Assembly (NCBI GenBank): GCA_050951585.1
Contig: JBMNJI010000006.1
Span: 364,434-428,433 of the forward strand
Source of the DNA: Peptococcia bacterium
GTDB taxonomy: Bacteria > Bacillota > Peptococcia > DRI-13 > DTU073
Length of the DNA: 64,000 nucleotides
Direction: 5' to 3'
This document shows positions 852 to 23,613 of the stretch, in pieces. Position numbers and translations under genes: made by a program. How positions within the stretch are numbered: the stretch's first letter is position 1; the number at the start of each line of letters is the position of its first letter. A model generated the notes under the pieces. That model did not search any database and was not told the origin of the DNA. It saw nothing but the letters and a program-made list of their open reading frames with translations.

Positions 852-1721
852 CTAAGCAAAAAGTTGATCCTCTATTGAGGCAGCAAAGAAAAATAAGGCA
901 ACAGTACCCGCACCGGCATGAGTTCCCACAACAGCACCGATATCTGCAAGGATAAGTTCCGTGCATTGCAATTCCGTACTGATCCTTTCATGGATTTTAA
1001 GCGCTTCTTCCAACACGTTCGCATGCGCGATAATGCAACGAACATTGCCATGATCATTGGCATAATTTCTCGCTATTTCGACGAGGCGCTCCAAAGCTTT
1101 CCCTTTGCCTCTGATTTTTTCAAAAGGAGCAATCAACCCTTCCTCAATCGTAAGAACCGGTTTAATATTTAACATTCCTCCCAGGAAGGCCGTGGCTTTA
1201 CCAATCCGTCCGCCCTTTTCCAAATTCTCCAGCGTATCGACAACAAAATAAGCTTTGACACTTTCTATCATCTTTTGGACTATCTGCAGAATCTCCTCTT
1301 TGCCCTTCCCGGCTTTCACCGCTTTGGCTGCAGCCAGGACAACAAATCCGAGGGCACAGGCCACAAGTTTACTATCCACCACGGTAATATCCCGGTCGCT
1401 TAAAACAGACTGGGCAATCTTCGCTGACTGACATGTTCCGGACATCAGACTGGAAATATGGATCGAAATTACGGTCGAACCGTCTTTGGTTAACTCTTCG
1501 TAAAAATCCTGAAACTCACCCGGCGACGGCTGTGAGGTAGCCGGTAATTTTTCGGCCTGCGCCAGTTTCTCATAAAAATCCTTTGTGGAAAGATCAATAT
1601 TCTCGCGAAAAGCCTCTTCACCAAAAATAATTTTTAGCGGAATCACGGCGATATCATATTCCTTGAGTAAAGCCGCCGGTAAATCTGATGTGCTGTCTGT
1701 GGCGATTCTGATTCGGGCCAT
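852..1721 (-). CDS. DegV family fatty-acid-binding protein
   Basis: 289 aa. N-terminus MARIRIATDSTSDLPAALLKEYDIAVIPLKI and the overall pattern are typical of the DegV family. Lies directly downstream of the DAK2 gene. Confidence 0.9.
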   Translation of the reverse strand: MARIRIATDSTSDLPAALLKEYDIAVIPLKIIFGEEAFRENIDLSTKDFYEKLAQAEKLPATSQPSPGEFQDFYEELTKDGSTVISIHISSLMSGTCQSAKIAQSVLSDRDITVVDSKLVACALGFVVLAAAKAVKAGKGKEEILQIVQKMIESVKAYFVVDTLENLEKGGRIGKATAFLGGMLNIKPVLTIEEGLIAPFEKIRGKGKALERLVEIARNYANDHGNVRCIIAHANVLEEALKIHERISTELQCTELILADIGAVVGTHAGAGTVALFFFAASIEDQLFA

Positions 1722-1762
1722 TACTACACCTCATTTCTTAATAATTATTATTCTCCTAATCT

Positions 1763-3379
1763 TTATTCAACAGATATCAAATAATAATACAAAGGTTGAC
1801 CACCATAATGCAATTCAAAATCCACCTGCGGATACTGCTGCGATAATGCCTCAATTAACTTTTCCGCATCCTGTTCCGACACATCTTCGCCATAATAAAC
1901 GGTAATTAGTTCGTATTCCGGTTTAATAAATTTCGCAATCAGTTGTTGGGCCACATCAGCCATCTTATCTCCCGTAACAGCAATTTTTCCTTCGCTTATC
2001 CCCAGGATTTGCCCCTTGGTGATCTTTTGGCCATCGAATTCCGCATCTCTCACCGCATAGGTAACCTCTAAGGTCATAATCTGCGTACATGCTTCTTCCA
2101 TTTTGGTTTTGTTGGTCTCCAGATCATTCTCCGCATTGAAGGCCATTAAGGCGGCAATCCCCTGCGGTATTGTCCTGGTGCCGACAACCCGGACCGGTTT
2201 GGAAGCGACCCCGGCAGCTTGCTGTGCGGCTAAAATAACATTGCTATTGTTAGGTAGAAGCAGAACCTCTTCTGCCAGGATTTGCTCAATCGCTTCAACA
2301 AAGTCCTGCGTGCTGGGATTCATTGTTTGTCCACCGGTGATGACGATATCGACGCCCAAGCTTTTAAAGACATCATTTAAACCTGACCCCAATGATACCG
2401 TGATAATGCCTAAATGCTTCTTCGCTCTGGCTTTTATCCGCATTTCCTCACTTTGTTCGAGCATATTATGGATTTGTACTTCATGAAGAGTCCCCATCTC
2501 GGTACAAAATTCCAGCACATTTCCAGGGTGATTGGTGTGGATATGGATTTTTCCTGTATCGCTGTTCCCAACAACCAAAAGACAATCCCCTTTATCGCTG
2601 AGAAAGGCTTTAACCCCATCTAAGGTCAGCGGCTTTTCCTTTTTCTTGAGAATGAATTCTGTACAATATTGATAGGTAATGGCTTGTTCGCCTGTATAAT
2701 CAAGCTTTTTTTGCACACTGTTAACTGCAGTCAGTGCTTCTTTTTGATACTTAGGCATATTTCCGCTTATGGCGGCTAACATACCTTCTAAAATATAGAC
2801 CCATCCTTGCCCACCGGCATCTACCACACCAGCTTGCTGCAATACGGGCAACATCGTAGGCGTCTCTTGTAAAGCCTGATAGGCACCCTCATAGGCCGCA
2901 TTTAAAACCGAGTGAAACGAGCTTCCTTCCCTCTGCCGTTCTTTGGCCGCTGCCACAGACGTCTCCCGGGCAACAGTAAGAATTGTGCCTTCTACCGGGT
3001 TGGTCACAGCCTGATAAGCTGTTTCAACCGCAGTATCCAAAGCCTGACAGAATCCATCGAGACTAATCCTCTCCTGACCTTCTGTGCTTTTGGCAAAACC
3101 CGCTAAGAGCTGCGATAAAATTACACCTGAATTACCTCTGGCCCCCATCAATGCGCCATAAGCCATGGCCTTGGTCAACTCACCCAGGTTTGCTGTTTCC
3201 TGCTCGGCTACCGCTTTCGCAGCAGTGGCCATAGTCAAGCTCATATTTGTCCCGGTGTCACCATCAGGTACAGGGAAAACATTTAAAGCGTCAACGCTTT
3301 GCTTTCTTTCTGATAAGTAAACACTGGAAGCGATAATTAATTTCGACCACAGCAAACCATCTATACTATCAATGTTCAC
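1763..3379 (-). CDS. yloV: DAK2 domain fusion protein (YloV family)
   Basis: 538 aa. N-terminal DAK2 pattern (FPVPDGDTGTNM) and a YloV-type C-terminal half. Confidence 0.9.
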   Translation of the reverse strand: MNIDSIDGLLWSKLIIASSVYLSERKQSVDALNVFPVPDGDTGTNMSLTMATAAKAVAEQETANLGELTKAMAYGALMGARGNSGVILSQLLAGFAKSTEGQERISLDGFCQALDTAVETAYQAVTNPVEGTILTVARETSVAAAKERQREGSSFHSVLNAAYEGAYQALQETPTMLPVLQQAGVVDAGGQGWVYILEGMLAAISGNMPKYQKEALTAVNSVQKKLDYTGEQAITYQYCTEFILKKKEKPLTLDGVKAFLSDKGDCLLVVGNSDTGKIHIHTNHPGNVLEFCTEMGTLHEVQIHNMLEQSEEMRIKARAKKHLGIITVSLGSGLNDVFKSLGVDIVITGGQTMNPSTQDFVEAIEQILAEEVLLLPNNSNVILAAQQAAGVASKPVRVVGTRTIPQGIAALMAFNAENDLETNKTKMEEACTQIMTLEVTYAVRDAEFDGQKITKGQILGISEGKIAVTGDKMADVAQQLIAKFIKPEYELITVYYGEDVSEQDAEKLIEALSQQYPQVDFELHYGGQPLYYYLISVE

Positions 3380-3582
3380 TACTATGCCTCCTCAAAATGA
3401 TTATACTCCATCCTTAATTATACTTGTAAAGATAAAGAATCGTCAATTTTTTCCGCAAAAGTTCCTTCCTGCTTTTAAAATATTATCTATATATTTAAGA
3501 AATACTAATGGCAACGTGTTCATTTGTCCACATTATATCGTTATTTATAGACACATTATCGCAGAAAAGGTGAAAATACAGC

Positions 3583-9531: not shown

Positions 9532-9590
9532 TGGTGCGGCTGAGAGGACTTGAACCTCCATGCCCTTGCGAGCACTAGAACCTGAATCTA
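9532..9590 (-). repeat. att copy: displaced 59-nt 3' portion of tRNA-Leu(CAG)
   Basis: Identical by my alignment to 20988-21046. The sequences diverge immediately on both sides. Confidence 0.9.
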
Positions 9591-9987: not shown

Positions 9988-10024
9988 AGGGGGAAAAGAA
10001 AAAGAGGGGCATCTCTGCCCCTCT
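9988..10024 (-). terminator. rho-independent terminator of the lysis cassette
   Basis: AGAGGGGCA (10003-10011) / TGCCCCTCT (10016-10024), followed on the minus strand by TTTTTCTTTTCC. Confidence 0.65.
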
Positions 10025-10145
10025 TTCGTGCTCATACGATTATCCTCCCGACCGTCAAGGCCGCTATCCCCTTTTAATGACCCCCACACTCGACAGTGCG
10101 CTCCTGCTTTGTGTCCTCATCCGTCACGCGCCGGGAAGAAGGGTG

Positions 10146-11251: not shown

Positions 11252-11653
11252 CTACCTCCCCATCATTTGTGTCAGCACGACATATAATAATTTATTGCCA
11301 GACCGCACCGCATCATGTACAGCTTGCGCGAATCGCTCATCAAACTGCCCCGCGCGCCAGTTCATAAATTTATACTCGAATACATGAGCCAATTCGTGGT
11401 AGATAAAGTCGGCTTGAGCATCAAAATCATTCCTGCCGGGCATGATATCCGTTGACTGTATATAGATGTATTTTGCATCAGCTGGTATGTGATGATATGC
11501 CGCAAGCAATCCGTTAGGAGGATTGACACCTATGTATATCGGCGGGCACCACTCGGACAGCCGTGGGAAGTACTGCTCTGCTTTCATGAGGAATTGACCG
11601 CGAAAATACGCTGCATCCTCCGGCGTTTTGGCGTAAACCTTGATTTGTTGCAT
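11252..11653 (-). CDS. hypothetical protein with HExxH motif (putative small zinc metallopeptidase)
   Basis: HELAH lies within FIYHELAHVFEY. ATG at 11653 follows GGAG. Abuts the holin gene with a 4-nt gap. Confidence 0.55.
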   Translation of the reverse strand: MQQIKVYAKTPEDAAYFRGQFLMKAEQYFPRLSEWCPPIYIGVNPPNGLLAAYHHIPADAKYIYIQSTDIMPGRNDFDAQADFIYHELAHVFEYKFMNWRAGQFDERFAQAVHDAVRSGNKLLYVVLTQMMGR

Positions 11654-12024
11654 TGGACACACTCCTTTCTATGATTAAAAAATATTTTGAAAAAACTTTT
11701 GAAAAAAAGAAGGATTTTTTGGGGGTCAATGTAGAACTCTCTTTAAAAAATTTAAAGACAAACTAGAGAGAGAAGAGACAGTTTCTTCTTCTTTTCTTTT
11801 TATCTTACTTTTTCTTTTCTTCTTCTTTAAAAAATATCTACTAGTAGTAATACTAGCGCAGATGAATTATTACTAGTAGAAACAAAAGCCAGAAACAAGC
11901 GTATTGTAATTGGGCATTCTGATTTGGATTGGATTACGGTAACATCTGATATCATCTGATTGCATTTGATATCAACATGTATACAAAGTGGTATATTGAA
12001 AGTGAGGGGGGTGAAGGGGTATTT

Positions 12025-12615
12025 ATGGGTGTTTACGTCGAATATTTGGTTTGCGCTTGTGTTTTTATAATGGTTTTTTCGTTCGCGTGGAAATGGATTG
12101 TTGCTGTGCCTGTTACGTTATTGCAATTAGGATTAGGCGAAAATGCAAACTTTTTATCTAATGTTGTTAGGGCGTTGGGGTATTTTTTAATCAGCACTTC
12201 GATTGTTTTGCTTAGCCTTGGCATGGCACATGAGTATGGCTATTCGTGGGTGTATTATTTGTCTGGATTTTTTATTTTGCTGTCAATCTGTATTTCTGAT
12301 ATAGCAGAGGCGGCAAAAAGATGTACAGATGAATACGGCAATTCTTCAGGTTGGTCAGAAATATTTTTAGCATTGTTTTGTATATCTATCTACATAGTTA
12401 GTTTAATTATTCCGGAGATAGCGTGTAATAAACTTACTTTATGGGTCTATGTATTTCTAAGTAAAATCTGGTCATTGCCGATAATCGGGGCAATCATAAA
12501 ATTTATAGCGGTGGCTTACGTTTTTTGGTATATGGTATCAGCAGTAATAATTATACTTACTTTAATTGGTATTATTGTTAAGACATTTCGTGGCGAAAAG
12601 GAAAATGTTTATTAA
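12025..12615 (+). CDS. polytopic membrane protein (about 6 TM), unknown function
   Basis: ATG at 12025 follows GAAGGGG. Protein is strongly hydrophobic throughout. The region is AT-rich and on the opposite strand to the phage late genes. Confidence 0.6.
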   Translation: MGVYVEYLVCACVFIMVFSFAWKWIVAVPVTLLQLGLGENANFLSNVVRALGYFLISTSIVLLSLGMAHEYGYSWVYYLSGFFILLSICISDIAEAAKRCTDEYGNSSGWSEIFLALFCISIYIVSLIIPEIACNKLTLWVYVFLSKIWSLPIIGAIIKFIAVAYVFWYMVSAVIIILTLIGIIVKTFRGEKENVY

Positions 12616-12634
12616 AAATAAGGAGGGGCGAAGA

Positions 12635-12931
12635 ATGGAATCTAAAAATTTACGTGATTACATAGCTTTTGATGATTGTGAAAAAGAACATTTTATAAAA
12701 AGATCTATCGATGGCTTGTGCAAATTCGTTTTTTGCTTAATAATTATGTTTGGCACAGGTACATTGGCGTATTATGCAACGAGACTGATTGAGCTTTTAT
12801 TGCGGTGCGAGGCTTCCAATTTTTTGTTTGGGCTAAATTATCTTGTTATAGTTGGAATGATGATTCGTGGCTATAAAGCGATTATTGAAAGTCCTCCAGA
12901 AGAGGAACATCCAACATTATACGATGAATAA
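12635..12931 (+). CDS. small membrane protein (2 TM), unknown function
   Basis: ATG at 12635 follows AGGAGG with an 8-nt spacer. 98 aa with two hydrophobic segments. Confidence 0.6.
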   Translation: MESKNLRDYIAFDDCEKEHFIKRSIDGLCKFVFCLIIMFGTGTLAYYATRLIELLLRCEASNFLFGLNYLVIVGMMIRGYKAIIESPPEEEHPTLYDE

Positions 12932-12933
12932 GA

Positions 12934-12951
12934 CAGGGGTTATTTCCCCTG
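12934..12951. terminator. short hairpin shared by convergent genes
   Basis: CAGGGG (12934-12939) / CCCCTG (12946-12951), between the stop of 12635..12931 and overlapping the stop of 12940..16053. The flanks are only moderately T-rich. Confidence 0.35.
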
Positions 12952-15900
12952 CCTTATTGCTCTTCGTGCTGTATCAAGTATTTTCTGCTGTATCCTGTCT
13001 ACTTCTTCCGTGTTTCCGTCCCCCTGGGCTTTCAACTTTTGCTTCTGCATTTTAGATATTTCGGTACTTATTTTTTGCAAACGGTTCTTTTCTCTTTCTT
13101 CCGGCGTTACGATTCTTGACGGTATGTCTTCTGTGATATTCCTATCCGTAGCCCTTCTTTGCAAATCATCCAATTTTTCATAGAAGTTTCCCAGTATCTC
13201 GTTATTGTATAACGGGTCCGCCGTAAACTGCCTTGATAAAACTTCTGCCGTGTTTACTCCCTTTGTTGTGGCTGGTTGAACAATATTCCCAATAACACCA
13301 AGATAAGATTTAATCAGATAGTCAATTTGTTTCGGAGATAGATTAAAGGCATCTCCTATTTTTTTGGCTATTTCTGATGTTCTCTCATCGTATTGGTATC
13401 TAGGGGAACGCTTGTCATACAGCATAGATTGAGGAACTATTGTTCTGTTGGCAAAATCTTTATTCCTTGGAAGATTCCACACTAGGGGAGCGGCTACGTG
13501 TTCCGTTAGGGGATTTTGAACAAAGAAGTTAGTAGAAACGGTGTTTCCAAACCCTTTAAAACTTTTCTCTTGTCCTTCTGCCAGCCTTGCCAATCTCTCA
13601 AACAATGCCCCGAACAATACTCCCGCTTCTCTGGTCTTGGCAATCTTGATAAATTTGCCGTTACCGTCTGGAATAACAAAATAGGTATCTTTGGTACGAT
13701 TATCAAGCTGGTCATATTCCTTTTTGGCTACAGCCTGATTCAAGGCATACAGTCCGGCTGTTGGCGCGGTAACTATCTTTAGAGCCTTGACAACGTTTGC
13801 AGGTCTTTTCATTGACCTAGCAAATTTATCTATGCCTTGAACAGCCGGGTTTAGATAGGGAACAAACGTATCCGCTGCTTTAGTCAAATTGCCATGCCGT
13901 GAGAAGTCAACCGTAACTTCTGCGGCGTTTTTTATTCCCTGCATTTTTCCGGCGTAAGTAATGCCTTCCCGCTTTAATGTTCCTAAATACTCTGCATATC
14001 TTGGTACTGTTTCCGTTAGGTTGTTAAATGCACTTATTTTGTCCCCTATTTTGCGAAGTGCTCCCGGTGGTACTAATCCTTTTTCTACATTAAAGAAGTT
14101 GCCGCCATGCCCTCCAAGTGCCTTAAATTCTTGATACATAGCGGAGCCGCTTTTTATGTCTTTTGTTGCCTGCTTAATGTTTTTAAGGAACCCAAACAGG
14201 CTATCTTCTGTCCCCTGAATATATGCTGTTGGAACGTCCCTTAAGATATTTCTAAGCGCAAAAAATGGATTGTATCCGGTAATAAGAGCCTTGAAAGGAT
14301 CGGTGACTAACATGCGAAAGTACTTTGCAAACATGCCTAGCTCTCCTTCTGGAACTTTTTTAAATTCCATCAAATCACGATACAGCCCTTCGTTAATCCT
14401 CAAGGTGACAGGCCTTCCTTTTTCCATAACGGTAAGCGTATACCCTTTTATCGGATCGCTTTTTAATGCTTCCTCGAACTGTTCCGCTATCCCGTCTATG
14501 CCCTTGTTGAGTATGTTTTTAGTCATTTCCTCTTCTTGTTTTAATGCCTTTTTTGTAAGTTCGGCCCAAGGCCTCATTTTTTCGGGGTCTTTGCGTACCG
14601 CTTCAAGTATCCCTTGGTAAACTTCATTTTGCCGTGCCGCCTTTACTATCTTGTTGACTTGCATCGGAATACTCTCAAACGGCTTAATCAGTTTCTTATC
14701 GCTACCCACCGCCGATTGTACGACTTTTGCCGGTGACATTCGCCCGAAGGTATTTATACGGCTGTTTGCTTGCCCTGTAGTCTCTCTAAAGGTTGGAACG
14801 TAATGTTCATACATTTGCTCTAACCGCTCCATGAGTTCCTTAGAAACAAGTCCTGACTTAACCGCCCATTCGTTACTAAATGTTTTCCACCATTTATCAA
14901 AGTTGGCAGCCTGTTCTTTAAACCCGGGGTTTTCCCTCTCAAATTTAGCGATCGCGGCCATAGATTCATTTTCACCCATGTCATTACCAAACACCGGCTT
15001 GCCTTGCTTCATCCTAGAAATATTGTGTTTGTGCAGTAAATATTCCTGGAACGCCTCTTCCTGCTCTTTCGGTACAGAGATAGTCTTTCTGAGGGATTCG
15101 CCTATCTTTGTTCCCCCCATATCAACCAGGGAATCATCTATAATATAACTAGCAGTTCCCCCGGAATTTTTAGCTATGGTTGACATTACAGCTGGGTTGA
15201 AGTTGGCGTCCGTTTTAAGCTCTTTTCCTAGCTTTTCTATGTTCGCCTGATTTGTTACTAACGCCCTGTATATTTCACCCATCCTGTCGCTTAGACTTTT
15301 CTTGCCTTTCTTAAAGGCTATTTGACTCTTCATGCTAAGCGGTTCTATTTCAGGCTTCGCTCTTTCGACGTTATTTGTTATCAGCCGATCCAGTTTCAAC
15401 ATTGGTCTTGTTTCCCCGGTAAAGGCGTGCTTGTCGTATACCTTGGGTACTTCGATAGTTTGTTTGAAGTTGAGCGGCGGGGGAGTGGACTTGTTTAAAG
15501 AGACTTCGGGAATTGGCGTCATATCCCGCATGAAAAATCCTTGCCCCTCTCCTTTCACAGACGGTAACAATCTCCCGCTTCGCACCGGTTCCGGTTGCAT
15601 ATTCTGTACTACCCTACGAATTGCGGCTCTTTGTGACTCGTTCATATACGCCCAGTCTACGCCTATATCCTTCGCTACATCTTTGGCAATGGTGTCTGTA
15701 TCTACTTTTACCCCTTTGTATTTGCCAATAGCCCTTTGTACGCCGCTCCTCAGCTTGCTACCTAATGCCGGTATCCCCAGCACGATAAGCGGGTCTAACG
15801 CCACGCCAAACAGTGCATCTGTGCCAGCTTGTTTTACTGCCTCTCCTGTGCTTTTCCCCTGCGCAATGCCAGTGCCGAAACCATACGCCGCCCCTTCTGT

Positions 15901-16053
15901 TGCTCCCCGTGCTATTACAGGAGCCGCTTTCGTGGCTATCTTAGGCAGTACCGCCGGTGCCTTTGTGAGCAGTTTCCGCGCGGCAAATTCGGCAGGCTGT
16001 CCCACCTTGGTTAATGCGCTGCCAATACTGGCACCTTTGTTCGGGCTCATCAC
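12940..16053 (-). CDS. large phage late protein (1037 aa), family not recognised; Gly/Ala-rich hydrophobic N-terminus
   Basis: The longest ORF in the element, and its antisense ORFs look like shadows. GTG/ATG start at 16053/16050. This frame is open only from 16071. Confidence 0.75.
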   Translation of the reverse strand: MMSPNKGASIGSALTKVGQPAEFAARKLLTKAPAVLPKIATKAAPVIARGATEGAAYGFGTGIAQGKSTGEAVKQAGTDALFGVALDPLIVLGIPALGSKLRSGVQRAIGKYKGVKVDTDTIAKDVAKDIGVDWAYMNESQRAAIRRVVQNMQPEPVRSGRLLPSVKGEGQGFFMRDMTPIPEVSLNKSTPPPLNFKQTIEVPKVYDKHAFTGETRPMLKLDRLITNNVERAKPEIEPLSMKSQIAFKKGKKSLSDRMGEIYRALVTNQANIEKLGKELKTDANFNPAVMSTIAKNSGGTASYIIDDSLVDMGGTKIGESLRKTISVPKEQEEAFQEYLLHKHNISRMKQGKPVFGNDMGENESMAAIAKFERENPGFKEQAANFDKWWKTFSNEWAVKSGLVSKELMERLEQMYEHYVPTFRETTGQANSRINTFGRMSPAKVVQSAVGSDKKLIKPFESIPMQVNKIVKAARQNEVYQGILEAVRKDPEKMRPWAELTKKALKQEEEMTKNILNKGIDGIAEQFEEALKSDPIKGYTLTVMEKGRPVTLRINEGLYRDLMEFKKVPEGELGMFAKYFRMLVTDPFKALITGYNPFFALRNILRDVPTAYIQGTEDSLFGFLKNIKQATKDIKSGSAMYQEFKALGGHGGNFFNVEKGLVPPGALRKIGDKISAFNNLTETVPRYAEYLGTLKREGITYAGKMQGIKNAAEVTVDFSRHGNLTKAADTFVPYLNPAVQGIDKFARSMKRPANVVKALKIVTAPTAGLYALNQAVAKKEYDQLDNRTKDTYFVIPDGNGKFIKIAKTREAGVLFGALFERLARLAEGQEKSFKGFGNTVSTNFFVQNPLTEHVAAPLVWNLPRNKDFANRTIVPQSMLYDKRSPRYQYDERTSEIAKKIGDAFNLSPKQIDYLIKSYLGVIGNIVQPATTKGVNTAEVLSRQFTADPLYNNEILGNFYEKLDDLQRRATDRNITEDIPSRIVTPEEREKNRLQKISTEISKMQKQKLKAQGDGNTEEVDRIQQKILDTARRAIRQGK

Positions 16054-16444
16054 GAAGCCGCCAATGACTGCCTAATACCGTGGCGGCTGTGTCGCCTACT
16101 TTGGAGCCTGTCGATGTTCTGTCGGGGTTTATTTCCTGCCCTGACATTACATCTAAGGCGGTTTCGGATGATCGGGCTTGAAATTTGCCGAGCTTTGAAT
16201 CCTCGTACCGTTGTGTCAAATTGGCTAGTAAGTTATTGATAGGCTTGGGAAAAAAGCCTCTATCATACGCCGCTTGCCGTTCTGGACTGAGGTTGGAGGG
16301 AGTGGAGAATAAGCCTTGCTTGGCGGGGGGTTTGGTTGCTTCTGCCGGCTCTTCTTTTTTGCCAAACAAAGACTCATATGTTATTATCCCGCTTTTTTGT
16401 GGGGAGGTTTTACCCATTACTTCTTCATATGTTTTTATGGCCAT
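15941..16444 (-). CDS. phage protein; last ~40 codons overlap the large ORF and look out of frame (possible frameshifted N-terminal part of the large protein)
   Basis: 167 aa. Sensible sequence runs up to ...STGSKVGDTAATVLG, followed by a W/R/C-rich tail. Overlaps 12940..16053 by 113 nt. Confidence 0.55.
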   Translation of the reverse strand: MAIKTYEEVMGKTSPQKSGIITYESLFGKKEEPAEATKPPAKQGLFSTPSNLSPERQAAYDRGFFPKPINNLLANLTQRYEDSKLGKFQARSSETALDVMSGQEINPDRTSTGSKVGDTAATVLGSHWRLRDEPEQRCQYWQRINQGGTACRICRAETAHKGTGGTA

Positions 16445-16456
16445 GATAACACCCCC

Positions 16457-16735
16457 CTAGAATGTGCCAAACCTATCTTCAATCTCCGCTAATGCCTTTC
16501 TGTAATCTGTATCATTCAATTGGTCGGCGTTGGCTTGCAATACCCGTCTAGCCTCTTCTATGGTCTGCGCTTTGCCTATCTCAGCAATGACTGCATAATA
16601 ATTATCAGCAGATGTCTTATTATCAAGGGTATCTGTTGCTTTTAAGCCTATAGCCGCTCTTTCGTCTGCTGTTAGTTCCTGTCCTTCGCTTAATTTGCGG
16701 TAAATATTATTTATGTAATCTTCTTTAGGCGTCAC
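16457..16735 (-). CDS. small phage protein, unknown function
   Basis: 92 aa, acidic and helical. Has an 11-nt overlap with the upstream gene, consistent with translational coupling. Confidence 0.6.
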   Translation of the reverse strand: MTPKEDYINNIYRKLSEGQELTADERAAIGLKATDTLDNKTSADNYYAVIAEIGKAQTIEEARRVLQANADQLNDTDYRKALAEIEDRFGTF

Positions 16736-16976
16736 TACGAGCAGGTCTGTTTAACGCATTAATTTGTGCCTTAATTTGGTTAAGCTGTGCCAAGGCTGTA
16801 TCATAGTCCAAGGAGCCAGTTTTGACCTGTTGTGCAAGTCTTTCTGCTTGTAGTTTCAGCGTATCCGGCAAATATGAGTTCTGTATCTCCTGTGCGGCAA
16901 TTTCCAATTCCCTCTGTCTATTCGCCAAGAATCGCCGCCTGTACCGCCGGGTTAGAAGGACTCCTGCTATAATCAA
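16725..16976 (-). CDS. small coiled-coil phage protein (true start may be TTG at 16928)
   Basis: 83 aa in the track. Plausible sequence begins at ANRQRELEIAAQEIQN. A TTG at 16928 would give only an 11-nt overlap with 16918..17502. Confidence 0.5.
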   Translation of the reverse strand: MIIAGVLLTRRYRRRFLANRQRELEIAAQEIQNSYLPDTLKLQAERLAQQVKTGSLDYDTALAQLNQIKAQINALNRPARSDA

Positions 16977-17502
16977 ACTGCTGTCCGGCTAGTGTCCTTT
17001 CATCTCCCAGACTGCCGGTTAATGCGCCCCGTTGCAATTCGTACTGGCGATTCTGGTTCCACTGGTCAATCATGGCTTGCATAGCTTGAGATTCCACATC
17101 TGCGTTAGCCGCCGCCACATCAGAAGCATAACCGCTTTCCACGTTTGACCGCTGTCTCTCGATTGCGGCAAGGTTAGCCGCTTCTTGCCTGTCTAATGCC
17201 CCTATCTGCCCCTGTAAGCCTGCCTGACGATATATCTCAGGCATAGCCCCTGCCGCTCCCTTAATGCCTCTTGCCGCCATGTATTGAGCAAAGTTCATTG
17301 CTCCTACATCAGAAGCCGCCGCCGCCCTGTTTCTTGCATCGTAATATGTCGGGGATACGTTGGCTTTCTCGGTGTCTAAGGCTCTCAATGCGGCGTCTTT
17401 GGTCTTGTCTAATGCGGCAATACGGCTTCTCCGCTGTGCCTCTTTGAGTTGATTGATATATTCGCTGGTTGGATCGGATATATATTGCTGATATGGTTGC
17501 AT
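16918..17502 (-). CDS. Ala/Gln-rich phage protein, unknown function
   Basis: 194 aa, MQPYQQYISDPTSEYINQLKEAQ..., with no competing ORF. Confidence 0.65.
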   Translation of the reverse strand: MQPYQQYISDPTSEYINQLKEAQRRSRIAALDKTKDAALRALDTEKANVSPTYYDARNRAAAASDVGAMNFAQYMAARGIKGAAGAMPEIYRQAGLQGQIGALDRQEAANLAAIERQRSNVESGYASDVAAANADVESQAMQAMIDQWNQNRQYELQRGALTGSLGDERTLAGQQFDYSRSPSNPAVQAAILGE

Positions 17503-17644
17503 ATATGCTGTTGCTCTATCGTGCTGTCGGTTGCAACCGCCGATTACTTTTTAGCGCATTGGGGTCAGTAACATAATGCTGTCCGGTTGTCTGGTTGAAT
17601 GACGTTCCCGGAATAGCCCCAGATGCATACTGTTACCCCTATTG

Positions 17645-17851
17645 TTACATTCCGGTTCGCATCGTAATCGACAGTGTTGCCCCATTTGGCTCATGTAATC
17701 TCGTAGGAATTGCCCGTGCTACTTGCACACCGCCGCTTGAACTCTGCTGAACTACCACCTGAATAACGCTTGATTTATTTTTCGCTCTTTCTATTGCCCT
17801 ACCAATTGCACTGCTAACTGCACCGCCAATCAAACTACCGAATAATCCCAT
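17645..17851 (-). CDS. small phage protein with Gly-rich hydrophobic N-terminus
   Basis: ATG at 17851 follows GGGAGAG. Sequence begins MGLFGSLIGGAVSSAIGRAIE... Confidence 0.5.
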   Translation of the reverse strand: MGLFGSLIGGAVSSAIGRAIERAKNKSSVIQVVVQQSSSGGVQVARAIPTRLHEPNGATLSITMRTGM

Positions 17852-17987
17852 GTATTTCACTCTCCCTTCTCTTTGGCAAAAGAAAAACACCCCGAAAGGT
17901 GTTAGTCTTAGTTTATATTAAATTGTTTCTAACCATTATTCCCTACCTAAACATTCATTCTGCATCCATTGTGGCGCATCAAGCGAT

Positions 17988-18557
17988 TTAAAACGCGTCT
18001 AATTCGTGAGCATAAGCATCTTTTTCGGAATAGGTCTCTATCGTTATTCCAATTGTTGCGTGACAAGCCTCATGCACTAATACACCTGCCAGAAACATGG
18101 GTGTATATCATTTTTGTGTCATTCTAAAGAATCGGGTAATGCGCGTTGAACCAGCCACATGTAAAGCTAATGCATCTTTAAGGATCTTCGGGTTTCTTTC
18201 TAATGGGGCTATATCAAACGTATTCTCGCACACCATCACATAATGCGGAAAGTCCTTCTCCTCCAGCAAATCCAGAGCCGCATTAATCTTCTTGACGAAC
18301 TCCGCATCCCCTTCTATCGGCGGTCGCTCAAGCCCCTTCTTCTTGATGCTTACGGTGTTAGTCGCACCATCCCAATCGGTTGTAGCCTCGAATATGTCTG
18401 CTACTGCTCGAATAGGGGCATAGGATACGCCGTCGATTATGACAACGGGCTTGTCTACCGCCACACCATCAACAATTAGCCGATATGGCGCGTCTGCCGT
18501 TACCGGTACTGCCAGCAACATTAGGGATAGAATAATAGGCAGAAGGTACTTTTTCAT
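17988..18557 (-). pseudogene. secreted copper-amine-oxidase-N-like (stalk) domain protein joined to an HExxH region, interrupted by an in-frame TGA
   Basis: ORF 18108..18557 ends in TGA at 18110-18108. The same frame then continues YTPMFLAGVLVHEACHATIGITIETYSEKDAYAHELDAF to a TAA at 17990-17988. Confidence 0.6.
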
Positions 18558-18634: not shown

Positions 18635-19408
18635 TTATTCTGACTTTTTCCATGCGCCACTTACTTTAACGTGGATTTCGTCTATCTGTTTCCAGACCCC
18701 GTTTACTTTTACCCATCCATCATCATAGCTTTTGTATACTCCGCCTATTTTGGGTTTTAAGTTTGGTGGTGTCCACCAAACAATCGTGTACGCTCCGTCT
18801 GCATCTGTTGTATCAGATACCAAGAGGGAAGATAAAAGATTCAAAGCGGGACGAACGCCGTAGCGATCAGTGTGAGCAAGGTGGTCGTTCAGCGTACCGT
18901 CCGCGTAGACATAGCGAGCGTAGTGAGCGTACGAGGAGCTCGGCGTTCTCAACCACCAATACCAAGCGTTACCGATAGCAGATGGTTTAGAGCTTGATAG
19001 AGTATTATTGAAAGCCTGTGCGGTCAAATACGCAATACGAGCAGCATTGCTTGTATAAAATCCCCATGCTGTTCCTTCTGCCGTACCACCTTCGTTAGCC
19101 AAGCCGACTTCGGTAGTAGAGGGGAGGAATACTTTCCGGGTAATGTCCTCATACCCACCCCCATCGACCGAAGGTTTAACAACTCTCAAAGGAGTAGATA
19201 AAATCGCATTCTTTTCTTCCGTACTAAAATGATTTAGAAACCCCGGACGAGTATCGTATGGCGTGTTGTTATTCACATTAGCAGCATTAGGAGCTTGGTC
19301 GTAAGTATGTTGTCCGACATACCAAGCACCCGCCGCCGAATCTTTATTTAGCCATTGGTCGATATTAGATACGGAATATATGAAACAAACGGGTATAATA
19401 ATAAACAA
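18635..19408 (-). CDS. DUF6273-like phage protein (tail-fibre-associated type), apparently N-terminally truncated
   Basis: WWLRTPSS...YGVRPALNL signature. The ORF opens at IDQWLNKD, a motif that is normally internal. Its 5' end abuts the repressor RBS. Confidence 0.65.
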   Translation of the reverse strand: MFIIIPVCFIYSVSNIDQWLNKDSAAGAWYVGQHTYDQAPNAANVNNNTPYDTRPGFLNHFSTEEKNAILSTPLRVVKPSVDGGGYEDITRKVFLPSTTEVGLANEGGTAEGTAWGFYTSNAARIAYLTAQAFNNTLSSSKPSAIGNAWYWWLRTPSSSYAHYARYVYADGTLNDHLAHTDRYGVRPALNLLSSLLVSDTTDADGAYTIVWWTPPNLKPKIGGVYKSYDDGWVKVNGVWKQIDEIHVKVSGAWKKSE

Positions 19409-19423: not shown

Positions 19424-19966
19424 ATGAAGAAAAATGACGGATTTTCTATTAAAAAATTTGCAACACGGCTGTTTACACTCAGAAACGAAGCCGGCTACAC
19501 ACAGGAAGAAGTTTGTAAATTACTACTGGAAAGATACCAATATGAAACAAATAAAGGGATGATATCGAAATATGAGAACGGAAAACACGAACCAAACATA
19601 TACTTTGTCAACATTGTCTCGGATTTGTTTGGAGTAAGCATGGAGTATCTTTCCGGCAAAACGGATGAAAAATACGCTCAAAGCAGCACGGAGAACTGTT
19701 GCCATATTCCCATAGTAGGAGCAATAGCCGCCGGGTTCCCTCTTTTAGCTACGGAAAACATAGAAGGTTTTGAGTGTGTTCAACCAAATCCGCGCGTAGA
19801 TTTTTGCCTTCGCGTTAAAGGCGATTCCATGATCGGGGCAAGAATTTTAAATGGAGATTTAGTTTTTATTCGCCGACAACCAGATGTAGAAAACGGAGAG
19901 ATCGCCGCCGTCCTGATTGAAGATGAGTCCACACTAAAAAGAGTTTTCAAGGTAAAAGGAGATTAA
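19424..19966 (+). CDS. phage repressor, XRE HTH + LexA/S24 peptidase domain, C-terminally short
   Basis: ATG follows AAAGGAGGTG. HTH is YTQEEVCKLL, Ser motif is KGDSM and Lys motif is TLKR. The protein ends 8 residues after the TLKR motif. Confidence 0.85.
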   Translation: MKKNDGFSIKKFATRLFTLRNEAGYTQEEVCKLLLERYQYETNKGMISKYENGKHEPNIYFVNIVSDLFGVSMEYLSGKTDEKYAQSSTENCCHIPIVGAIAAGFPLLATENIEGFECVQPNPRVDFCLRVKGDSMIGARILNGDLVFIRRQPDVENGEIAAVLIEDESTLKRVFKVKGD

Positions 19967-20987: not shown

Positions 20988-21074
20988 TGGTGCGGCTGAG
21001 AGGACTTGAACCTCCATGCCCTTGCGAGCACTAGAACCTGAATCTAGCGCGTCTGCCAATTCCGCCACAGCCGC
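20988..21074 (-). tRNA. tRNA-Leu(CAG), class II with long variable arm
   Basis: Folded by hand: acceptor GCGGCTG/CAGCCGC, anticodon loop TTCAGGT, encoded CCA. 87 nt. Confidence 0.95.
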
Positions 21075-21094
21075 AGGCATCGATAATAATATAG

Positions 21095-21170
21095 TGGCTG
21101 GGGCGGCAGGACTCGAACCTACGAATGACGGAGTCAAAGTCCGTTGCCTTACCGACTTGGCTACGCCCCA
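21095..21170 (-). tRNA. tRNA-Gln(UUG)
   Basis: Acceptor TGGGGCG/CGCCCCA, anticodon loop CTTTGAC, encoded CCA. Confidence 0.9.
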
Positions 21171-21212
21171 ATATTTTTCTATCAGTATTTAAAGCAATCT
21201 ATCAAGGAAAAA

Positions 21213-21299
<87 letters not shown>

Positions 21300-21304
21300 A
21301 ATTG

Positions 21305-21380
21305 TGGAGCCGACGATGGGACTCGAACCCGCAACCTGCTGATTACAAGTCAGCTGCTCTACCAATTGAGCTACATCGGC
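21305..21380 (-). tRNA. tRNA-Thr(UGU)
   Basis: Anticodon loop CTTGTAA, T-arm GGTTCGAGTCC, encoded CCA. Confidence 0.9.
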
Positions 21381-21393
21381 ATTAAAGGTAAAA

Positions 21394-21470
21394 TGGCGGA
21401 GCTGACGAGAGTCGAACTCGCGATCTCCTGCGTGACAGGCAGGCATGTTAGGCCACTACACCACAGCTCC
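21394..21470 (-). tRNA. tRNA-Asp(GUC)
   Basis: Anticodon loop CTGTCAC, encoded CCA. Confidence 0.9.
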
Positions 21471-21497
21471 ATGATATACAATTAAATTTTGGTAGAT

Positions 21498-21572
21498 TGG
21501 TGACCCGGACGGGAGTCGAACCCGTGTCGCAGCCGTGAAAGGGCCGTGTCTTAACCACTTGACCACCGGGCC
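21498..21572 (-). tRNA. tRNA-Glu(UUC)
   Basis: Anticodon loop CTTTCAC, encoded CCA. Confidence 0.9.
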
Positions 21573-21589
21573 ATATTATTTTGAACGTT

Positions 21590-21666
21590 TGGTCGGGGCA
21601 GAGGGATTTGAACCCCCGACACCCTGGTCCCAAACCAGGTGCGCTACCAAACTGCGCTATGCCCCG
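21590..21666 (-). tRNA. tRNA-Pro(UGG)
   Basis: Anticodon loop TTTGGGA, encoded CCA. Confidence 0.9.
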
Positions 21667-23535: not shown

Positions 23536-23613
23536 TGGTCGGAGCGACTGGACTTGAACCAGCGGCCTCCACCACCCCAAGATGGCGCTCTAGCCAAACT
23601 GAGCTACGCCCCG
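23536..23613 (-). tRNA. tRNA-Pro(GGG)
   Basis: Acceptor CGGGGCG/CGCTCCG (one G-U pair), anticodon loop TTGGGGT, encoded CCA. Confidence 0.85.

Follow-up and report, generated by a model that had tools for sequence, protein, structure and literature searches.

Two late phage genes, an LPD38-type gene and its upstream partner, read from six open frames in a gutted prophage of a Peptococcia bacterium

A stretch of 64,000 nucleotides from a Peptococcia bacterium (NCBI GenBank assembly GCA_050951585.1, contig JBMNJI010000006.1; the whole stretch is called the window here, and positions are counted from its first letter) carries on its minus strand a block of six open reading frames (ORFs) of 68, 194, 83, 92, 167 and 1,037 amino acids (aa), the last two referred to as ORF167 and ORF1037. 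All six are present as open frames at the places where an earlier note on this DNA had put them; that note took them for six separate genes, five of them coding for small Ala/Gln/Gly-rich proteins, and could place the large protein in no phage structural family. We put at roughly 0.8 the probability that the region comes from a temperate, podophage-like prophage, integrated at a tRNA-Leu gene and since gutted, of whose late operon it is the right end, and that it holds two genes: an LPD38-type gene and, upstream of it, a smaller gene that we call the partner. The large product is thus an LPD38 protein of a known kind in an ordinary defective prophage, and the partner family has no name in the libraries searched. 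The main value of the analysis is corrective: what seemed to be six unplaceable genes are two phage genes of known type, left in a gutted prophage, and the supposed small proteins come from single-base frame breaks that may not be present in the organism.

Two genes behind six open reading frames

The large gene was reconstructed from relatives that cross the boundary between ORF167 and ORF1037. Homologues of ORF1037 (n = 93) are mostly 1,100–1,500 aa long. P0060 and P0076 are 90–94% identical to its first ~350 residues, extend further upstream, and each span ORF167 into the start of ORF1037 as one chain. A frameshift-aware alignment of P0060 needs one single-base skip and no more, at 16066, and 327 of its 352 residues are identical: residues 1–123 correspond to 16444–16067 in one frame, and residues 124–352 to 16065–15379 in another. 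This single skip indicates that the last 41 residues of ORF167, together with its overlap with ORF1037, are out-of-frame read-through; like the 13-residue lead of the 81-aa form of the 68-aa ORF, the 41-residue tail is out of frame or untranslated in relatives. Downstream, the LPD38 body aligns with P0002 over 854 codons with zero skips and zero stops. On these alignments, ORF167 and ORF1037 read as a single LPD38-type gene encoding ~1,165 aa.

The four smaller ORFs resolve in a similar manner. The 194-aa ORF has 127 longer relatives, and the best 120 of these 127 are all 360–691 aa in length, the top ones being 95–98% identical. P0096 (434 aa) falls on the window as four consecutive pieces in three frames, with residues 29–59 on 17638–17546, 77–279 on 17544–16927, 279–343 on 16928–16734 and 344–434 on 16732–16460, the last piece being 99% identical and equal to the 92-aa ORF; its frameshift-aware identity to the partner gene is 376/416. 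P0095 (448 aa), whose N-terminal residues are those at the start of the 68-aa ORF, aligns with six skips, crosses no stop, and is identical at 323 of 442 codons. The skips lie near 17713, 17676, 17633, 17545, 16929 and 16733 (the last at 16730/16733 against P0095), and the sites given by P0094 and P0096 agree wherever they overlap. Across the ORF boundaries the relatives are 88–99% identical, and the frame shifts by one base at each boundary. The 68-, 194-, 83- and 92-aa ORFs are accordingly best read, from sequence, as consecutive pieces of a single ~460-aa partner gene. With P0096 and P0095 spanning the four small ORFs, and P0060 and P0076 spanning the other two, the claim of six separate genes falls, and the five small proteins become fragments of two genes.

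The N-terminal module of the large gene (15380–16444, the first ~350 codons) is the part that is 90–94% identical to the starts of P0060 (1,113 aa) and P0076 (1,386 aa). The C-terminal bodies of these two proteins carry no LPD38 and do not align to the LPD38 profile, and hhalign of P0060 against the LPD38 alignment recovered the shared N-terminal part only, the C-terminal body being unrelated. The same head on unrelated bodies points to a sharp mosaic junction near 15380. The nearest protein to the LPD38 body is 71% identical.

The large protein, which the earlier note had found unplaceable, reaches 112.4 bits with Pfam LPD38 (PF18857), for which the cut-off is 27 (E 3.7e-32), over residues 778–931 of ORF1037 and profile positions 2–171 of 189, and nearly all of the 93 homologues carry PF18857 in precomputed Pfam assignments. 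The conserved part is much longer than the domain. PHROG families 9854, 14770 and 18222 (1,636–3,427 positions) are matched by their C-terminal thirds, and an alignment of 33 homologues displays conservation from about residue 260 to the end. The AlphaFold model of the large ORF (predicted local distance difference test score, pLDDT, 74; predicted template-modelling score, pTM, 0.69) is confident from about residue 250 on and almost all helical. In BFVD, 86 models were matched at E <= 0.001; the best 50 of these 86 are unnamed or of the large-polyvalent-protein type, several with enzyme-domain names and with PTXU04 of E. coli among the phages represented; the majority are segments from further along in long proteins, with template-modelling (TM) scores of 0.5–0.63 over ~900 columns. 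The whole ~780-aa helical C-terminal body, beyond the 170-aa Pfam core, is common to LPD38-type giant phage proteins.

Searches of Pfam, PHROGs, NCBIfam and PADLOC gave the large protein no second domain, and no domain of toxins or of toxin delivery turned up; peptidase, methylase, helicase, lytic transglycosylase and MuF-C are among the domains that were not recognised in it, and its first 770 residues (ORF1037 numbering) have no Pfam domain. A profile search of solved structures returned only low-complexity matches of the TolA/ATP-synthase stalk type (E 0.03–0.5). The N-terminal part of ORF1037 is Gly/Ala-rich with one hydrophobic stretch at residues 76–101, in agreement with the earlier description of a Gly/Ala-rich hydrophobic N-terminus. 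The resulting layout is a short variable head, a Gly/Ala-rich stretch, a disordered linker and the ~780-aa helical body. The large protein is a bare LPD38 frame with no enzyme cargo; polyvalent proteins are defined by 2 to 15 effector or enzymatic domains (Iyer et al. 2017), and with LPD38 as its only domain it is not polyvalent itself.

The partner family has a single library match, a weak one to phrog_13399 (E 0.0017), and none in Pfam, NCBIfam or PADLOC; a profile search of solved chains gave no match, and the ESM Atlas returned unnamed clusters only. Among the 94 related loci with enough upstream DNA, the partner profile was found in 19, each time as a single ORF of 314–565 aa that ends within a few bases of the start of the LPD38 gene. 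The model of P0096 (pLDDT 84) has a small beta N-terminal domain, two hairpin helices (99–164 and 175–249) and shorter helices, so that the partner appears as a small variable N-terminal domain followed by an antiparallel helical hairpin of ~65–75 residues per arm. A hydrophobic N-terminal stretch is present once in P0095 and absent from P0096. The 417-aa Page_18 protein of the Bacillus megaterium phage Page weakly shares the core motif (hhalign E 0.0053, probability 6.8%), and gp41 of the Pelagibacter phage HTVC204P gave no match to the partner profile.

Two side observations concern the variable N-terminal part of the partner. In P0178, a 495-aa member of the family, it contains a PG_binding_1 domain (E 1.9e-05), which suggests that this part contacts the cell wall. 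In a contig of run X12, the corresponding DNA (17468–17854) is replaced by 297 other letters, and the variable part thus appears to be exchanged between otherwise near-identical phages.

A prophage remnant, its relatives and a candidate ejection role

The block lies in an element of 11,456 bp that is delimited by a perfect 59-bp direct repeat duplicating the 3' part of a tRNA-Leu(CAG) gene (Table 1). The element is a prophage remnant in which integrase and repressor survive beside the final late genes and the lysis cassette; ~30 kb has been deleted, with the genes for early functions, replication, packaging and the head and most of those for the tail. The repressor gene, divergent from the late genes, also has an NCBIfam lexA-like match under the cut-off. 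In line with the earlier statement that capsid, packaging and replication genes are lacking, no capsid, portal or terminase family was matched among the 15 ORFs scanned with Pfam and PHROGs, the element yielded no gene for replication, packaging or capsid redirection, and nine queries with the relatives' head and tail proteins found nothing anywhere in the 2.03-Mb assembly. Comparison with the gene order of the relatives indicates that everything between the repressor and the tail-fibre-like DUF6273/Hoc-like gene was deleted. The latter gene lacks its 5' part, its Pfam match beginning at profile position 33 (protein residue 11) and its phrog_10993 match covering positions 59–270 of 556, and is the probable scar of a large internal deletion. 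Whether the frame breaks are artefact or real, the element cannot make virions. It shares with cryptic prophages at tRNA genes the att duplication, the kept integrase and repressor, the internal deletion and the broken late genes; it differs in that its breaks are unusually clustered, run in one direction and are absent from near-identical environmental copies.

The relatives supply the missing context. Related viral contigs are 36–45 kb long, of which ±10 kb each was seen. Their order is a major head protein, ~7 kb of small and medium ORFs, in some cases a Cu_amine_oxidN1 gene, the partner, the LPD38 gene and the lysis genes, followed by integrase and repressor on the other strand; this place of the integrase, past the lysis genes and in opposite orientation, is what circular permutation of the integrated order predicts. 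The contigs L055 and L006 display this order without a tape-measure-sized gene, and no tail-tube, sheath or chaperone family was matched in either. The large gene itself was considered as a tape measure and rejected, having no tape-measure match in Pfam or PHROGs and being followed by lysis genes in the relatives.

A tblastn search with the large ORF reached 151 phage records, none covering 80% of the query, and the plasmid collection gave no match to it; a scan of viral contigs with the single protein found no relative, and the alignment-based scan was the one that found them. Prophages with relatives are mostly in Bacillota (Paenibacillus, Cohnella, Clostridia, Oscillospiraceae), with a few metagenome-assembled genomes under other labels. 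Among annotated phages, the LPD38 body matches the C-terminal end of p0009 (3,066 aa) of the Vibrio podophage 252E42.2; Page_20 (1,679 aa), which is followed directly by holin/antiholin, holin and endolysin genes; and gp40 of HTVC204P, which comes after tail tubular proteins A and B and an 'internal virion protein'. The slot of gp40 is the one in which T7-like phages keep gp16. Page is described as a podophage (PMC3990757). The podophage affiliation of the present lineage is well supported but not proven. In annotated and examined relatives, the LPD38/partner pair closes the late operon before lysis.

This position, and the family of the large protein, bring the pair close to phage proteins that have been reported as present in virions or as needed for infection. 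Phi24B gp47, with the domain order LPD5-LPD1-LPD38-MuF-C, was detected in virions by proteomics, was not seen in the reconstruction and was proposed as an ejection protein, as stated in bioRxiv 10.64898/2026.04.10.717836; PTXU04_00025, with LPD38 only, is reported to be needed for efficient infection (bioRxiv 10.1101/2023.09.18.558157); and Iyer et al. 2017 (PMC5512222) predicted that polyvalent proteins of the phage type are packaged in the capsid. The tabulated architecture of gp69 from the Burkholderia phage JC1 places LPD38 near its C-terminus. Phi24B gp47, PTXU04 gp25, JC1 gp69 and 252E42.2 p0009, all large 'polyvalent' proteins of podophages, share with the window protein the same LPD38 in a ~780-aa C-terminal body and the same place, as last big gene of the structural operon. 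They are 2,198–4,600 aa long, against ~1,165 aa for the window protein, which has no second domain, comes from an anaerobic host of the Gram-positive type and is broken as deposited. By analogy, the window protein would work like the delivery frame of the polyvalent proteins.

The nearest parallel from an annotated phage is Page. Its order is the same, Page_18 with the partner motif, Page_20 with LPD38, then lysis, and both hosts are monoderm; Page_15 (594 aa) has same-sized counterparts in L055 and L006. Identity between Page and the window is 23–25% over the LPD38 body, the Page protein is larger, a 'lytic tail fiber' gene (Page_19) stands between the two genes in Page, and no integrase is annotated in the stretch of Page that was seen, whereas the lineage in the window is temperate.

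The comparison with T7 is looser. T7 gp14, gp15 and gp16 likewise place a small helical channel-type protein upstream of a protein of >1,000 aa at the end of the virion module. The window differs in having no sequence likeness to solved chains, no lytic transglycosylase and two genes in place of three; membership of the large protein in the T7 gp16 family was not supported, the protein having no transglycosylase domain and matching no solved chain by profile or by Foldseek (E <= 0.001). In VIA, the best match of the partner hairpin is the T7 entry 8e4g_a, a chain that we take to be gp14, with Z 10.6 and a root-mean-square deviation of 2.9 over 126/127 residues: the hairpin superposes on this chain, but the fold match is not above that of generic coiled coils and is a hint at most. 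A further match, 7ey7_A (Z 9.2, chain residues 38–139), is to PDB 7EY7, which includes gp14, whose post-ejection structure (residues 37–139) is given in PMC8954989 as a hexameric channel. The same review notes that the cataloguing of ejection-protein genes had centred on phages of Gram-negative hosts.

Taken with the gene order, these likenesses suggest a virion or ejection role for this short, cargo-less, Gram-positive subfamily, which we infer by analogy. Both proteins would be made late, packaged in the head and released via the short tail when the phage infects, and the released pair would then assist the passage of the DNA through both wall and membrane of a Gram-positive host. A variable N-terminal domain and a long hairpin could make the partner a small ejection protein that builds or lines a channel across the thick wall; the LPD38 protein, which has a hydrophobic segment and a helical body, could be the large ejection protein at the membrane, like those of T7-like phages. 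The unnamed partner family, found directly upstream of the LPD38 gene in 19 of the 94 loci and weakly linked to Page_18, would then form with LPD38 a candidate two-protein ejection set for podophages that infect Gram-positive hosts. At ~1,165 aa, the large protein comes near to an LPD38 frame of minimal size and without cargo, and it would be convenient for studying what the LPD38 body does.

Several results count against this assignment of role and should be read beside it. It draws on distant relatives at 22–25% identity and on gene order, and the proteins with known virion presence or ejection are distant LPD38 relatives, none of them in this subfamily. The partner was found by profile in only 19 of the 94 loci and not in the other 75. 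Its match to T7 gp14 is tied with matches to unrelated coiled coils (Z 10.2, 9.9 and 9–10), and Z values under ~13 in VIA are common for long helices. For the large model, Foldseek against the PDB found nothing at E <= 0.001, and VIA with all 1,037 residues, a length beyond that for which it works best, aligned only a generic C-terminal three-helix bundle to designed and coiled-coil proteins. Some relatives in BFVD carry the automatic labels 'Siphoviridae sp.' or 'Myoviridae sp.'.

The options raised in the earlier note fare unevenly. Its suggestion of a module for the virion or for injection, or else of a large polyvalent protein, was near the mark, given LPD38 and the podophage relatives; toxin delivery drops out, with no such domain found. 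The large protein has entered a known class, and the small ORFs, for which that note had thought of ordinary chaperone or scaffold families, are pieces of a conserved gene instead.

Status of the frame breaks and competing accounts

The lesions consist of eight single-base skips and one stop, all within 18110–16066, and all eight skips are in the same direction. Besides those in the two genes, they include a skip at 17993 and a stop at 18108–18110 in the adjacent Cu_amine_oxidN1 gene, as aligned with the 213-aa gene of the metagenome contig L122 (155 of 206 residues identical). L122 is 97.2% identical to the window over 1,124 bases (window 17468–16345) and has an intact partner frame of 466 codons followed by an open large gene. 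Its indels relative to the window are single bases only, and the window bases at 16929, 16733 and 16066 are missing there.

Logan contigs from four runs in four studies (bioreactor, landfill, sludge and digester metagenomes) were compared over 15900–17900. At 16066 and at 16733, every bridging contig has one base fewer than the window, in 4/4 runs. At the third site, bridging contigs have one base fewer at 16929 or 16936, which accounts for all of the depth in three of the four runs; in run X2, the 16929/16936 deletion variants make up 57.0 of a depth of 63.8. The remaining sequence is nearly the same as in the window: the eight listed pieces of X1 (~1,616 bases) have only two other letters and one gap, and a 230-base piece of X2 across 16066 has no further difference. 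Indels outnumber substitutions at the sites checked at the DNA level, which is unlike slow neutral decay. The lesions also fall in the part for which other circulating phages have highly similar counterparts: identity to relatives is 88–99% in the N-terminal module and the partner, against 71% in the LPD38 body. Nine lesions within 2.0 kb, followed by 3.1 kb free of them, would have a chance of 0.396^9, or ~2e-4, under uniform spread (a post hoc figure), and such clustering is unlikely for uniform neutral decay.

The common direction, the clustering, the shared stretch and the excess of indels fit consensus errors from mixed reads of related phages. We therefore incline to the view that the breaks are assembly consensus errors in a stretch that abundant related phages also carry; that they are real, very recent and private mutations is a less favoured but substantial possibility. 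Four points tell against assembly error. The three N-terminal skips were checked against proteins only (54–83% identity), the four Logan runs are not known to include the source sample, Logan contigs lose rare variants, and the host genes of the window, ~52 kb in all, have no obvious breaks, which selection would also explain.

The three skips seen at the DNA level are insertions outside long homopolymers, two of them after the same three-base word, and no slippery or repeated motif is common to the three sites. Adjacent short same-strand ORFs, tried as a genome-wide proxy for frame breaks, did not discriminate.

If the breaks were real, the 1,037-aa ORF might have been kept by selection as a host-domesticated, truncated LPD38 protein that starts at an internal GTG or ATG (16053/16050); the SOS-type repressor and the lysis cassette might have been kept with it. 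We consider this unlikely. It would account for the 3.1 kb (854 codons against P0002) that is free of breaks next to an upstream 2.0 kb with eight skips and one stop, for a holin, amidase, integrase and repressor that look full-length, and for late genes that now face the divergent control region of the repressor. However, the LPD38 gene occurs in 0/9 other genomes of the family, with no sign of vertical retention, and the break-free part is the unshared part (71% identity, against 90–99% upstream), which consensus errors fit equally well or better.

If the breaks were instead artefact, the 11.5-kb element might be a working capsid-less satellite that rides in the particles of a helper podophage. 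Perfect att repeats, an intact integrase and repressor, and near-identical intact versions of both genes in several metagenomes are in its favour. Against it stand the absence of any replication, packaging or capsid-redirecting gene from the element, the DUF6273 gene cut at its 5' end beside the repressor as a deletion scar would be, the stop in the Cu_amine_oxidN1 gene, intact relatives that are 36–45-kb phages with the same gene order, the lack of helper head and tail genes in the assembly, and a compact architecture unseen in any other related locus examined. We judge it improbable, and hold equally improbable the broader idea of a living capsid-less mini-element reduced to an integrase, an SOS-type repressor, a two-protein ejection set and a lysis cassette, whether a satellite supplying injected proteins to a helper podophage or a damage-triggered lysis module kept by the host.

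A biological origin of the splits, by programmed +1 frameshifting, a naturally split gene set or stop-codon recoding, has very little probability. Eight skips in the same direction, and three stops clustered in one frame near 17633–17647, are what might suggest it; near-identical sequences in four studies and L122 are without the extra base, so that the unbroken form is the norm, and the three DNA-level sites have no slippery motif in common. Stop-codon recoding was rejected, the clustered stops being a mixture of TAA, TAG and TAA that vanishes in the correct frames. The six-gene reading, a new virion, injection or toxin-delivery module, is just as hard to credit: each of its ORFs is open from a start codon and they follow one another closely in one orientation, but every boundary between them lies inside a continuous protein of a relative. 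The gutted prophage with two late genes remains the reading that we prefer.

Neighbouring features

The coordinates of the two genes, of the ORFs into which they are split and of the surrounding features are collected in Table 1.

Table 1. Features of the prophage remnant and its integration site (window positions).
Feature	Position	Strand	Remarks
Left att copy, 59 bp	9532..9590		Exact repeat of 20988-21046
Terminator-like hairpin, strong, after endolysin gene	10000-10027		Terminator scan
Endolysin (N-acetylmuramoyl-L-alanine amidase), 225 aa	10146..10823	-	Pfam Amidase_2 E 3.8e-16; PHROG amidase/endolysin families
Holin, 139 aa	10828..11247	-	Pfam Phage_holin_4_1 E 1.5e-43, profile 2-115/116; phrog_199
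136-aa ORF, directly upstream of holin	11252..11662	-	H-E-x-x-H-like motif
Two opposite-strand ORFs, 212 aa and 121 aa	11977..12931	+	Between LPD38 gene and lysis cassette
Terminator-like hairpin near plus-strand ORF pair	12934-12951
LPD38-type large gene as reconstructed, ~1,165 codons	12940..16444	-	Split by one extra base at 16066
ORF1037, 1037 aa	12940-16053	-
ORF167, 167 aa	15941-16444	-
Partner gene as reconstructed, ~460 codons	16460..17851	-	Split by six single-base frame skips
ORF, 92 aa	16457-16735	-
ORF, 83 aa	16725-16976	-
ORF, 194 aa	16918-17502	-
ORF, 68/81 aa	17645-17890	-	81 aa from GTG; 68 aa from ATG at 17851
Hairpin and T run, just upstream of partner gene	17886..17903	-	In L122 too
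Secreted-protein gene, Cu_amine_oxidN1-like domain	17939..18557	-	Open frame 18108-18557; Pfam E 4.7e-07
DUF6273/Hoc-like (tail-fibre-like) gene without 5' part	18635..19408	-
CI/LexA-type repressor (helix-turn-helix, HTH, and S24 peptidase)	19424..19966	+	Pfam Peptidase_S24 E 7.8e-19, HTH_3; phrog_4
Tyrosine integrase, 304 aa	19989..20903	+	Pfam Phage_integrase and Phage_int_SAM_3; phrog_1 E 1e-58
tRNA-Leu(CAG), integration target	20988..21074	-	ARAGORN; 3' 59 bases 20988-21046 are the right att

The block is flanked by the DUF6273/Hoc-like ORF on one side and by the holin and amidase genes on the other, so that its placement between a tail-fibre-like remnant and the lysis cassette holds as to the flanks; the cassette is not directly adjacent, two plus-strand membrane ORFs and the 136-aa ORF lying between block and holin. 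Counterparts of the Cu_amine_oxidN1 gene occupy the same position in L055 (249 aa) and in L122 (213 aa). The 136-aa ORF has no family match in Pfam, PHROGs, NCBIfam or PADLOC and was found in no related locus by tblastn.

The two plus-strand ORFs likewise match no family in these four libraries. The minimum of guanine-plus-cytosine content for this part of the window (0.387, in 12001–14000) includes the pair, which is probably an inserted accessory, moron-like cassette; such an insertion perhaps encodes a superinfection-exclusion or membrane protein. The 212-aa ORF has about 5–6 hydrophobic stretches by hydropathy.

The tRNA-Leu gene is the first of seven tRNA genes in a run (20988–21666, minus strand: Leu, Gln, Tyr, Thr, Asp, Glu and Pro), with the prophage at its 3' end, and an additional tRNA-Pro gene lies at 23536–23613.

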